From the IMG/VR virus record IMGVR_UViG_3300005080_000005: a stretch of DNA of 64,000 nt, one strand, 5' to 3'. Each line of letters begins with the position of its first letter. The first letter of the stretch is position 1. Below, piece after piece: positions 46,286-49,194 of this stretch. The stretch comes from a virus. A program made the position numbers and the translations under genes. The notes under the pieces are model-generated. The model searched no databases. It was not told where the DNA came from and was given only the letters and a program-made list of their open reading frames with translations.

Positions 46286-46666
46286 TTAATAAAATTCTTT
46301 ATAGTATTTTACGTATGGGATTGTTTCATGACTCGGATTAAACAGTTTATCTCCAAATTCATCATACAAATTCTTAATTTCACGCCAAATAACTTCTTGG
46401 AAACCGGATTCGACTAGGACAGACTCATTCTCATCTTCTGGTTTATTAGAGTCGTCATAAAAACTAAGAAGCTTACTAAAGCCAGAAGTTCGATAACACC
46501 AATCCATATAGTTATCTTGTACTGCTGGATCCTTTCCTTTAATCAACATTGCAATTCCATGGCCTACGTGTTTCATACTACATTCGTCTTGATCCCCAAT
46601 ATCGTATAGAACATTGGTCAACACTTTAATTCGTTCTTGTGCTTTCTTTAACTTCTTCTTACTCAA
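46286..46666 (-). CDS. hypothetical protein
   Basis: ORF. Confidence 0.45.
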   Translation of the reverse strand: MSKKKLKKAQERIKVLTNVLYDIGDQDECSMKHVGHGIAMLIKGKDPAVQDNYMDWCYRTSGFSKLLSFYDDSNKPEDENESVLVESGFQEVIWREIKNLYDEFGDKLFNPSHETIPYVKYYKEFY

Positions 46667-46669
46667 AAC

Positions 46670-46990
46670 TTATTTCTCCTCTTTTAGAATATTTTTAACT
46701 TCTTCTTTAACTGTGATAGTTTCATTAATATTACGTTCTTTTGGTTTACTTAGACTATCTTTCAATTCAACTTCTTTTTGTTCAAAAGTCACACCTTGCA
46801 TTCTTGGTGCTTTCCCTTTTGGGAGGTAAGATGGCTGAATCAACATATAAATCATCATAGCCACAACCATAATAACACCAGTATTAATTACTGTCAATTT
46901 GTTTTTAGTTTTATTATATCGCCACATCCCTGCGGCGAGTACAGACAACAACAAAACTGGAAGCAAAATATTAAGAATAATAACCATCAA
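46670..46990 (-). CDS. 2-TM membrane protein, putative partner of SPFH lipoprotein (NfeD/YqiJ-like position)
   Basis: Two hydrophobic segments then charged tail; 9 nt downstream of SPFH gene. Confidence 0.5.
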   Translation of the reverse strand: MMVIILNILLPVLLLSVLAAGMWRYNKTKNKLTVINTGVIMVVAMMIYMLIQPSYLPKGKAPRMQGVTFEQKEVELKDSLSKPKERNINETITVKEEVKNILKEEK

Positions 46991-46998
46991 TGTTTTCC

Positions 46999-47868
46999 TT
47001 ATTTATTATTCAAAGTAACCATTGGGATTGCGTTACCCATTGAAGTTGTAGGAAGCTGACCATTCCATTTTTGGATCCATTCACGTTCATTCTCAAGGCG
47101 ACGAAGTTCAAGCACTTTATCATCAACAACTTCTTTTTGAACTTTCTGTGCAGCAGCTTCACCTTGAGCTTTTTCAAAATCAATTTGACGTTGCAGACGA
47201 GCTTCTTGCAGTTCACGTTCAAGTTTCACTTTAGAAATTTGAAGCTGTGCTTCTTCTTGTTGAATCTGTTCACGGCGTTGTGCTGCATTCTCCTGTGCAT
47301 CAGTAATAATCTTAGGATACTGAACTCGTGTCACACCGACATATCGTACATCAAATGGAGTACGTGATGCAATAGCTTTACTCAAAATATTACGAAGGTC
47401 ATTGTTTACCTTTTCCATACTACTTGCGATCTGTCCAATGGAATAATTAGAAAGATATTCACGTACCTCAGCTTGGACGATTTGTTGCGCATATGTTGCA
47501 TAAACTTTTTCCCAAGGAATCAGTGTCTTATCTCCAGTCTCTACAGGAGAGATAGTTCCAAATAGTGCTGCTGTTTTAGTTGGATTCAGACTAAGCGTAG
47601 TTCGTACATCTACTGCCAGTTCAAGTTTATCAGTTGGAATAAAGATTGACAGACTTTCAACTGTGGAACGATCTGATGTATCGAGTAGAACAAGTTTATC
47701 ACAATAAGACCAGCATGGTGCAAGACGGAACTTAGAGGTTCCAATCTCTTCTGGTTGATAACCATCTTTTGTCATGATCTTACCTACATGGGCAGGCGGG
47801 ACTTCAACCATTTGACCACAACCGGAAAGCATTGCAACCAGAGCAGCAATACCAATAATTTTCTTCAT
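46999..47868 (-). CDS. SPFH/band-7 (stomatin/prohibitin-like) domain lipoprotein
   Basis: Signal peptide + lipobox LSGC; SPFH-like core; C-terminal Ala/Gln/Glu coiled coil (AQRREQIQQEEAQLQ...AQGEAAAQ). Confidence 0.6.
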   Translation of the reverse strand: MKKIIGIAALVAMLSGCGQMVEVPPAHVGKIMTKDGYQPEEIGTSKFRLAPCWSYCDKLVLLDTSDRSTVESLSIFIPTDKLELAVDVRTTLSLNPTKTAALFGTISPVETGDKTLIPWEKVYATYAQQIVQAEVREYLSNYSIGQIASSMEKVNNDLRNILSKAIASRTPFDVRYVGVTRVQYPKIITDAQENAAQRREQIQQEEAQLQISKVKLERELQEARLQRQIDFEKAQGEAAAQKVQKEVVDDKVLELRRLENEREWIQKWNGQLPTTSMGNAIPMVTLNNK

Positions 47869-47914: not shown

Positions 47915-48184
47915 TTACTGGGTCTTTAGATCTTTAATAACTTCAAGTGAACCATGATCTTTAAATGTCTCATCTTTTACAAATTTAAAACACTCGTATA
48001 CATCTACAATTGAAGCATTATCGTCTGTAAAATTCAACATATCTTTTACTGTCTTTTCCATCAGAGGGTAATGTTTAATTCCTTTAAAAGAAACATAACC
48101 CAACATTTCATGAAGAAGATTAATTTCAGCTTGTGACATCTTGACAACATAATCACCATCTTTGTTGATTTTCTTAAGTTTCAT
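47915..48184 (-). CDS. hypothetical protein
   Basis: ORF. Confidence 0.45.
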   Translation of the reverse strand: MKLKKINKDGDYVVKMSQAEINLLHEMLGYVSFKGIKHYPLMEKTVKDMLNFTDDNASIVDVYECFKFVKDETFKDHGSLEVIKDLKTQ

Positions 48185-48414: not shown

Positions 48415-49194
48415 TTAACTTAGCCAACAACTTGCAAAGTCTGGCTCACTGAAGGTTGCAGTGGGTTTGACATACTTCGGTGCTTTAAATTCTTTGATTG
48501 AACCATTTTTCTGTTTCTCACCTTTAGCCCAGAAGATAATCCGATCTTCCCCAACAGACTCATCATAACGAAGTTCATGGTAAACGTCAACATAACGCCC
48601 TTGTTTTTCGATCTCAACAATCTGATGTTCAATCAATTCACGAAGTTTAACTTTTTCGTTACACTTAACACTTACATTTGACCACCAATTGCTCTCCCCA
48701 AACTCTGTTACAGTTGGGAACTTAGACCAATTCGATTCAAGAACCTCGTTGACAGCTTTCAGATGGTTAATATCAAGTTGGTAGAAAACACTTTCCATTA
48801 CTTCCAATACTGAATCATAATTATTCTTTGAAAGGTAGCCGTTGTATGCCCATTCGATCTCATAGTGAATTGGGTCTGGATTATCACTGATCCAAATCAG
48901 ATTCTCTGGATTATCACCTTCACGTAGGAAGAATTCATAACCAACAATCACCAACCCATCAACAATAGCATCAAGGAACTCTACTTTATCCCCATTTTCA
49001 ATAGCGGTAAACAATTCACCAACTTCCTCAATACGAAGCTTATAATAAGTATCTTGAAGTTCAGGACTATTTTCTAGTCCAAGGAAGTTATTTGTAGCAC
49101 GGACACCTTGATAGAGTTTTATTAGTGCTTTCTTAACTTCATTATCTTTCTTGACAAGGCTATTCAGAAATTCTGTTTTATTTTGAAAGTTCAT
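48415..49194 (-). CDS. MazG-like nucleoside triphosphate pyrophosphohydrolase (dUTPase/dCTPase-type, all-alpha)
   Basis: EEVGELFTAIENGDKVEFLDAIVDGL resembles MazG EExGEL..A......ExxDxL metal-binding helix. Confidence 0.45.
   Translation of the reverse strand: MNFQNKTEFLNSLVKKDNEVKKALIKLYQGVRATNNFLGLENSPELQDTYYKLRIEEVGELFTAIENGDKVEFLDAIVDGLVIVGYEFFLREGDNPENLIWISDNPDPIHYEIEWAYNGYLSKNNYDSVLEVMESVFYQLDINHLKAVNEVLESNWSKFPTVTEFGESNWWSNVSVKCNEKVKLRELIEHQIVEIEKQGRYVDVYHELRYDESVGEDRIIFWAKGEKQKNGSIKEFKAPKYVKPTATFSEPDFASCWLS

Follow-up and report, generated by a model that had tools for sequence, protein, structure and literature searches.

A conserved phage gene pair encoding a predicted SPFH lipoprotein and a small two-helix membrane partner

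The window analysed here, a stretch of 64,000 nucleotides (nt) from a virus (IMG/VR record IMGVR_UViG_3300005080_000005), carries between positions 46670 and 47868 two neighbouring genes on the minus strand, the first of which encodes a lipoprotein of the SPFH (Band-7) family and the second a small membrane protein, referred to here as the partner. A first-pass annotation of this DNA had noticed the two genes; its observation has been confirmed, and its interpretation is partly supported. The two-gene pair is a conserved unit. The SPFH gene (46999..47868) comprises 289 amino acids (aa) plus stop and starts with an ATG, ahead of which the sequence reads as an AAGGAG ribosome-binding site; the call has been based on the open reading frame (ORF), Pfam, PHROG_200, AlphaFold, Foldseek and the ratio of nonsynonymous to synonymous substitution rates (dN/dS). 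The partner gene (46670..46990), called from its ORF, homologue length, a hairpin model, synteny and dN/dS, has two optional starts, namely TTG at 46990, giving 106 aa and an 8-nt gap to the SPFH gene, or ATG at 46987, giving 105 aa and an 11-nt gap, with AAGGA 8 nt upstream. As every homologue in the databases has 105 aa and starts MV(I/L)(I/L)LN, the ATG is the likelier start. The close adjacency noted earlier has therefore been retained, with a gap of 8 or 11 nt in place of the claimed 9 nt and with both genes on the minus strand; equally, the description as a two-helix membrane protein stands, and the length of 106 aa given with it holds only from the TTG. Compared with the closest phages, the Aeromonas phages phiA047 and 4L372XY (nucleotide identities of 92-93% and 90-91%), dN/dS has been found to be 0.02 for the SPFH gene and 0.10-0.11 for the partner in the minus-strand frames. 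Both ORFs are, according to these ratios, real coding sequences under strong purifying selection, and the overlapping plus-strand ORFs are antisense artefacts.

The SPFH identity of the 289-aa protein is secure, because a Pfam match above threshold, a phage family profile, a structural model and full-length structural matches all point to it. Band_7 (PF01145) matches residues 55-209 with E=9.4e-12 and 45.8 bits, the gathering score being 23.6, as the first-pass annotation had anticipated when it described an SPFH/Band-7-like core and proposed this very search. The PHROG_200 'lipoprotein' profile covers residues 2-288 (E=9.1e-54, profile positions 82-361 of 379). An AlphaFold monomer model built from a 49-sequence alignment (mean predicted local distance difference test, pLDDT, 84) has shown an alpha/beta domain at residues 20-183 (47320..47811, minus strand), delimited by the secondary structure of the model, its pLDDT and the Band_7 match, which is followed by one single helix of 82 residues (186-267; 47068..47313, minus strand; pLDDT 81-95) and by a conserved C-terminal tail (268-289; 47002..47067, minus strand) that is disordered in the monomer model (pLDDT ∼42). 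The helix is the Ala/Gln/Glu-rich stretch already recognised as a coiled-coil tail, and it aligns in Foldseek with the subunits of known cages; the tail bears the motif W..KWNG.LP..MG..P, which is kept in alignments A1 and A3. Sequence searches of the PDB have returned only marginal matches to prohibitin and stomatin. With Foldseek, the model has matched over its full length human prohibitin (8rrh), E. coli HflK/C (7vhq/9cz2), erlin, QmcA and stomatin, with E from 4.6e-12 and a probability of 1.00; prohibitin and HflK/C have been the best of these, the identity across the known cage subunits amounts to 11-18%, and many viral Band-7 proteins match as well. By analogy to these structural relatives, the protein may assemble into a ring or cage. 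Within the family, the window protein belongs to a subclade with a CxxxC pair and a KWNGxLP C-terminus, whose nearest full-length relatives are chromosomal proteins of Comamonadaceae with 65-67% identity.

The N-terminus of the SPFH protein, MKKIIGIAALVAMLSGC, consists of KK, a hydrophobic core and the lipobox L-S-G-C, fits the pattern [LVI][ASTVI][GAS]C and places the predicted acylated residue at Cys17 (signal peptide residues 1-17; 47818..47868, minus strand). The lipoprotein signal proposed earlier on the grounds of LSGC is borne out by the conservation of this residue, as Cys17 is present in every one of 13 diverse and 49 closer homologues; in the latter 49, Gly18 at the +2 position is invariant too. 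Weak matches of the signal peptide have been obtained to LPAM_1, LptM and TraN. A second pair of cysteines, Cys52 and Cys56 (CWSYC; 47701-47715, minus strand, located by homologue alignment), lies within the alpha/beta domain and is invariant in the 49 close-clade homologues, and both residues are missing together in the KVP40 and PAK_P3 proteins. They probably form a disulfide in an oxidising compartment, which would fit a periplasmic location of the protein. Acylation at Cys17 and a location at the inner membrane are likewise predicted from the sequence.

The partner is modelled with confidence as a hairpin of two transmembrane helices, residues 2-27 and 30-50 (pLDDT 84-88), which together with the basic loop RYNKTKNK occupy residues 2-50 in ATG numbering (46838..46984, minus strand; model and charge analysis). 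Two motifs, defined in alignment A2, characterise the family: QPSYxPKG just past the second helix and IxDRxxKP some 25 residues further. In the window they read QPSYLPKG (residues 51-58, directly after the second helix; 46814..46837, minus strand), with a nearly invariant Lys, and LKDSLSKP (46742..46765, minus strand), with a nearly invariant Pro, the latter within the predicted periplasmic tail. Across 30 members of the family the N-terminus carries 0 K/R, the loop between the helices on average 3.2 K/R with a net charge of +2.7, and the tail is approximately neutral; following the positive-inside rule, the loop should therefore be cytoplasmic and the N-terminus and the motif-bearing tail periplasmic. 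Accordingly oriented, the tail is predicted to share its compartment, the periplasm, with the SPFH lipoprotein.

The same order of genes, SPFH first and a small membrane protein second, is found in the classical SPFH-NfeD operons, and the first-pass annotation had equated the window pair with stomatin/NfeD or YqiK/YqiJ. A copy of such an operon in a phage would thus account for the arrangement, and the matter has been decided by the partner itself. NfeD (PF01957), which had been proposed for searching, has given no Pfam match at E<=1 with the window partner and none at E<=0.1 in the 30 members scanned singly, in which no other consistent Pfam match and no match to the Imm family have been seen either; NCBIfam has returned no match for the window partner; and the family profile has matched none of the solved structures in the PDB, with no NfeD chain at E<=1 although entries of that family, for instance YbbJ in 8z5g, are included. 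The model contains no OB-fold or beta-barrel, with only helices past the hairpin in a tail of low confidence. Homology of the partner to NfeD or YqiJ has been rejected on these results, and the pairing in the window is analogous and not homologous to the SPFH-NfeD operons. Since, in addition, the phage SPFH protein is predicted to be lipid-anchored and periplasmic, as opposed to the cytoplasm-facing QmcA and YqiK, a transplanted operon of the classical type is very improbable.

The suspicion that the small membrane protein next to the SPFH gene is a real and conserved partner has been confirmed from the genomic context. Loci have been fetched with the SPFH alignment (18 bacterial and 39 from IMG/VR), and the downstream ORFs have been scanned with a local iterative hidden Markov model (HMM). 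In the resulting 69 loci, which comprise IMG/VR phages, GenBank phages and chromosomes of Comamonas, Acidovorax and Lampropedia and in which partner ORFs span 95-140 aa, a partner homologue (one per locus) follows the SPFH gene in 62, either immediately adjacent or within ∼1 kb, and 42 downstream ORFs of the fetched loci contain a motif of the QPSYxPKG type. Conversely, retrievals made with the partner profile only have been located directly downstream of a Band_7 gene in all three independent contig sets examined. An exhaustive search with this profile has yielded 110 representative clusters, nearly all of 105-150 aa and matched end to end. An earlier impression that the partner might be an orphan came from a word-indexed search, which finds near-identical proteins only, and has been overturned by the synteny and the iterative HMM. 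Moreover, the partner occurs in subtypes that follow the subtypes of the SPFH protein. In Alteromonas V22-like phages NT(F/Y)K stands in place of QPSY and (I/V)xDRxRKP is retained, so that the Pro of the second motif is common to both subtypes, and a third subtype, recognised at the level of architecture, has two transmembrane helices followed by SPI(T/M)RP and lies after the distant SPFH genes of KVP40, PG07 and AhSzq-1. In our literature searches no description of the partner family has been found, and it seems never to have been described before.

Some single loci deserve mention. In Pseudomonas phage vB_PseuGesM_254 (L008:3461-3682) a 73-aa soluble ORF has been observed between the SPFH gene and the partner; translational coupling of the two genes is therefore not required. 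A pseudopilin-like third gene of 88-100 aa, whose product bears the prepilin N-terminal methylation motif (PF07963, 'GFTLIELMIV'), follows the partner in L074:3368-3637, L076:3366-3632 and L077:1706-1972, and is also seen in L058/L059, at +388 to +424 nt past the SPFH stop, and in L029, so that some phages may possess a three-gene envelope set; the window lacks this third gene. Two partner homologues, P0153 and P0163, have been named 'cell division protein FtsL' and 'FtsB' by the Joint Genome Institute (JGI); these names are very likely wrong, the proteins being small membrane proteins whose helical tail is charged. Locus L029 itself is a 3.4-kb contig binned as a Phocaeicola metagenome-assembled genome (MAG), with an SPFH gene (38% identical) and a partner that are both nearly the same as those of AhSzq-1 (L070). 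The contig probably represents phage DNA that was binned with a Bacteroidota MAG and does not show that the module occurs in Bacteroidota. The neighbour of the SPFH gene in PhiSH19, annotated as 'superinfection exclusion protein', has been considered as a partner homologue and rejected, as it is a soluble acidic protein.

The high rank of prohibitin and HflK/C among the structural matches, both of which have AAA-protease partners, raises the question whether the phage protein acts as a mimic of HflK/C, with a periplasmic cage that traps host FtsH, or a different protease of the inner membrane, by its periplasmic domain and alters the turnover of proteins such as phage membrane proteins, LpxC or SecY. 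In E. coli, no SPFH pair other than HflK/C is known to face the periplasm, and the phage protein would have the same side-of-membrane topology; several homologues have, in addition, been named 'regulator of protease activity HflC' by JGI. However, the Foldseek scores of prohibitin, HflK/C, erlin, QmcA and stomatin are similar and reveal no specific affinity to HflK/C, the module's own conserved membrane partner suggests a self-sufficient complex, and nothing connects the module to FtsH. We thus regard such a mimicry as rather unlikely.

The phage to which the window belongs has its closest matches in the Aeromonas phages 4L372XY and phiA047 of the genus Plateaulakevirus, to which no family has been assigned; the nearest relatives are 90-92% identical in nucleotide sequence. 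Its NrdA is ∼50% identical to that of rV5-like and FelixO1-like phages compared with 39% for T5-like phages, and the best matches given by the depositors are PVP-SE1, FV3, CR9 and 4MG (rV5-like/FelixO1-like myoviruses); the label of a T5-like phage has accordingly been abandoned in favour of an rV5-like/FelixO1-like affinity. Around the cassette, the minus strand also carries genes for an exonuclease, a MazG-like pyrophosphohydrolase, a DNA ligase and a small protein that resembles regulators, and the earlier placement of the cassette in a metabolic block is consistent with these adjoining genes of DNA metabolism. Directly downstream lies a 126-aa soluble protein (46286..46666, minus strand; 50% identical to 2L372X_160) and upstream an 89-aa protein (47915..48184, minus strand; 97% identical to 2L372X_159), both outside the module. 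Only ∼4 of 16 related Aeromonas phage records contain the cassette. In the congeneric phages 2L372X and 2L372D the orthologues of both flanks stand side by side, with exactly the two cassette genes missing, and in 2L372X the flank orthologues are 30 nt apart with no SPFH cassette between them. As the flanks are kept in these phages without both genes, the pair has been gained or lost as one unit and is dispensable for lytic growth. These phages provide natural, isogenic-like controls (4L372XY and phiA047 with the cassette, 2L372X and 2L372D without), which should make phenotyping straightforward. In the same block, a 259-aa MazG-like pyrophosphohydrolase (phrog_671; 48415-49194, minus strand) takes the place at which phiA047, 2L372X and 2L372D have a 125-aa dUTPase, and at the nucleotide level the window ceases to resemble phiA047 and several other relatives at about position 48417; this looks like another swap slot.

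Copies in bacterial chromosomes extend the distribution beyond phages. Comamonas and Acidovorax possess an SPFH lipoprotein gene, 65-67% identical to that of the window, followed by a 96-97-aa partner gene that overlaps it by 4 nt and encodes the same hairpin and motifs. The bacterial copies are found in stretches that vary between strains. Those of Comamonas (L002-L005) are preceded by an H-NS-like gene, in some cases accompanied by a truncated C5-methyltransferase, and lie beside thiF-cpoB-pal-tolB, and that of Acidovorax (L006) adjoins genes for DUF6708 and VasX_N, the latter of the type of effectors of the type VI secretion system (T6SS); within 5 kb of these copies no prophage genes have been found. 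The G+C content of the cassette is 0.36-0.39 against ∼0.35 in the phage and 0.60-0.63 against ∼0.64 in Comamonas. The composition has thus been ameliorated in both settings, from which it follows that the direction and the date of the transfer are not readable, and composition, considered as a sign of recent transfer, has been rejected as such since the cassette matches each genome. One explanation of this distribution is a general stabiliser of membranes, in which the cage and the hairpin keep the integrity of the inner membrane and the proton-motive force during a long lytic cycle and are equally useful to Comamonadaceae under envelope stress. The presence of the same, ameliorated module outside prophages agrees with such a role, as does its occurrence mainly in large virulent phages, and bacterial SPFH proteins have been tied to stress resistance in a review. 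On the other hand, the cassette is dispensable within the genus, and the variable accessory regions of its bacterial copies, with an H-NS-like gene, a methylase fragment and T6SS effector genes, resemble sites of conflict more than of housekeeping; a stabiliser is thus a possible but tentative explanation.

Taking these results together, we propose, with a probability of roughly one in two, that the pair is an accessory module in which a periplasm-facing, lipid-anchored SPFH cage and an inner-membrane hairpin partner remodel the host envelope. The SPFH protein would be secreted and lipid-modified at Cys17, which would place it in the periplasm, and it would be anchored by its acyl chains, whereas HflK/C and prohibitin use an N-terminal transmembrane helix. 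The SPFH domain, the long helix and the C-terminal motif may then build a ring or cage on the face of the membrane, to which the periplasmic tail of the partner could dock with its QPSYxPKG and IxDRxxKP motifs, so that the hairpin would fix the cage, or start its formation, at the periplasmic surface of the inner membrane, in the topology of HflK/C. The cassette would, in consequence, remodel or insulate the interface of inner membrane and periplasm in the infected cell to the advantage of the phage. Most likely it would exclude competing phages or protect against membrane-directed attack, with membrane stabilisation as a close second; a role in conflict is favoured because the cassette is optional, occupies variable regions in bacterial genomes and is often found in large virulent phages. 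A bolder version, which we consider doubtful, postulates a mobile conflict module of NfeD-independent, lipid-anchored periplasmic cages, shared between large virulent phages and accessory regions of Comamonadaceae, that stops foreign DNA or toxins from crossing the inner membrane. If true, it would act as superinfection exclusion in phages and as defence or immunity in bacteria.

Several points weigh against the proposed envelope module. It is synteny alone that suggests a contact between the partner and the SPFH protein, and the charged partner tail of ∼55 residues, which would mediate it, is modelled as low-confidence helices (pLDDT 45-60). The distant SPFH lipoproteins of PAK_P3 and PhiSH19 have no hairpin partner, and thus an SPFH protein of this family can work alone. 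Regarding exclusion or defence, a PADLOC search with both window proteins has given no meaningful match, and near the bacterial copies no defined defence system has been found, only the truncated methyltransferase; such a role is therefore without direct support, and membership in a known defence system has been rejected. The roles put forward in the first-pass annotation, namely superinfection exclusion, protection from membrane-acting abortive infection or the timing of lysis, are conjectures. A scan for promoters and terminators has yielded 31 promoter-like sites, where shuffling leads to an expectation of 25.9 +/- 5.5; the count is within chance. Our literature searches on phage SPFH proteins and SPFH lipoproteins have returned annotations and trace mass-spectrometry detections only, with no experimental study found.

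The most serious of these points concerns sorting. The classical inner-membrane retention signal of lipoproteins is Asp at the +2 position, and the default rule of E. coli otherwise sends them to the outer membrane. The SPFH protein has Gly at +2 and not this Asp, so that the default rule would direct it to the outer membrane, breaking the simple picture of a cage on the inner membrane. The invariant Gly is the main uncertainty of the inner-membrane cage model. It would be in line with a trans-envelope or lysis device, built from an outer-membrane lipoprotein and an inner-membrane hairpin and acting in a spanin-like manner, in the timing of lysis or in the masking of receptors as in Llp and Cor, for which a weak PHROG match to Cor (E=0.0075) might also be quoted. 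Yet this match is confined to the signal peptide (residues 1-24), the cassette is located amid genes of DNA metabolism and not of lysis, the module is present in bacterial chromosomes without phage genes, and its size and fold are unlike those of o-spanins, Llp and Cor, which renders a device of this kind improbable. Two specific candidates have been rejected, namely a Cor-like exclusion lipoprotein, as the match covers nothing beyond the signal peptide, and a two-component spanin, considering a 289-aa SPFH lipoprotein, a hairpin partner and DNA-metabolism neighbours instead of a lysis cassette.

SPFH genes have reportedly been listed in phage genomes since 2003-2006. Our tblastn search has found the SPFH lipoprotein family in 142 phage records, including T4-like KVP40, PAK_P3, KPP10, phiKZ-like jumbo phages and T5-like Demerecviridae, and PHROG_200 lipoproteins are also present in Vi01-like phages; several of the homologues have been annotated as 'SPFH domain / band 7 family protein' or 'lipoprotein'. 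Among the Demerecviridae, Vibrio phage PG07 (gp051, 'SPFH domain / band 7 family protein') and Aeromonas phage AhSzq-1 both have the pair of SPFH gene and partner, and the statement of the first-pass annotation that none had been described in a T5-like phage is wrong with respect to the databases. With the SPFH gene of the window, this annotated family of phage proteins gains a further member. A 2006 paper has reported Band-7 genes in the T4-like phages 44RR, Aeh1 and RB43, with 44RR ORF097c, which has an N-methylation motif, right beside ORF098c (SPFH), and a 2026 paper has stated that the reason for an SPFH gene in phages 'remains unclear'. Mass spectrometry of virions or crude preparations has detected distant phage SPFH proteins in trace amounts only, as for the SPFH protein of Erwinia phage RisingSun. 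In relatives the gene thus counts neither among the structural components nor among those for lysis. The present analysis converts a lone SPFH annotation into a defined two-gene unit with a specific, unannotated partner, joint gain and loss and strong constraint, which is also found in bacterial chromosomes.

In comparison with known systems, the closest relatives are the PHROG_200 proteins such as KVP40.0339, PG07 gp051, PAK_P3 gp041, 44RR ORF098c, Sajous1 gp200 and RisingSun gp131, which belong to the same family as the window protein and share its lipobox; they differ in that the CxxxC pair and KWNGxLP mark the window subclade and in that the hairpin partner is lacking in PAK_P3 and PhiSH19. 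To the non-essential envelope proteins and lipoproteins of phages, i.e., T4 Imm, Sp, T5 Llp and Cor, the likeness is in gene type only, with no homology to the window pair. HflK/HflC and the prohibitins PHB1/PHB2 resemble the phage protein in having an SPFH domain, a long helix that forms coiled coils and a segment at the C-terminus that closes the cage, and most of their mass lies on the non-cytoplasmic side of the energy-transducing membrane, as is predicted for the phage; they are attached by an N-terminal transmembrane helix, whereas the phage protein has a predicted lipidated Cys, and they form heteromeric pairs, whereas the phage has a single SPFH gene with its own hairpin partner and is not known to be connected with an AAA protease. 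The SPFH-NfeD operons (QmcA-YbbJ, YqiK-YqiJ, FloA-NfeD, PH1511-PH1510) resemble the cassette in co-encoding an SPFH gene with a small membrane protein, which, according to a review, is presumed to assist assembly; their complexes face the cytoplasm, whereas the phage system is predicted to be periplasmic and its partner is not NfeD. No earlier SPFH system would then have been predicted to combine a lipid anchor on the periplasmic side and a partner other than NfeD, and the cassette would widen the range of known cage architectures.

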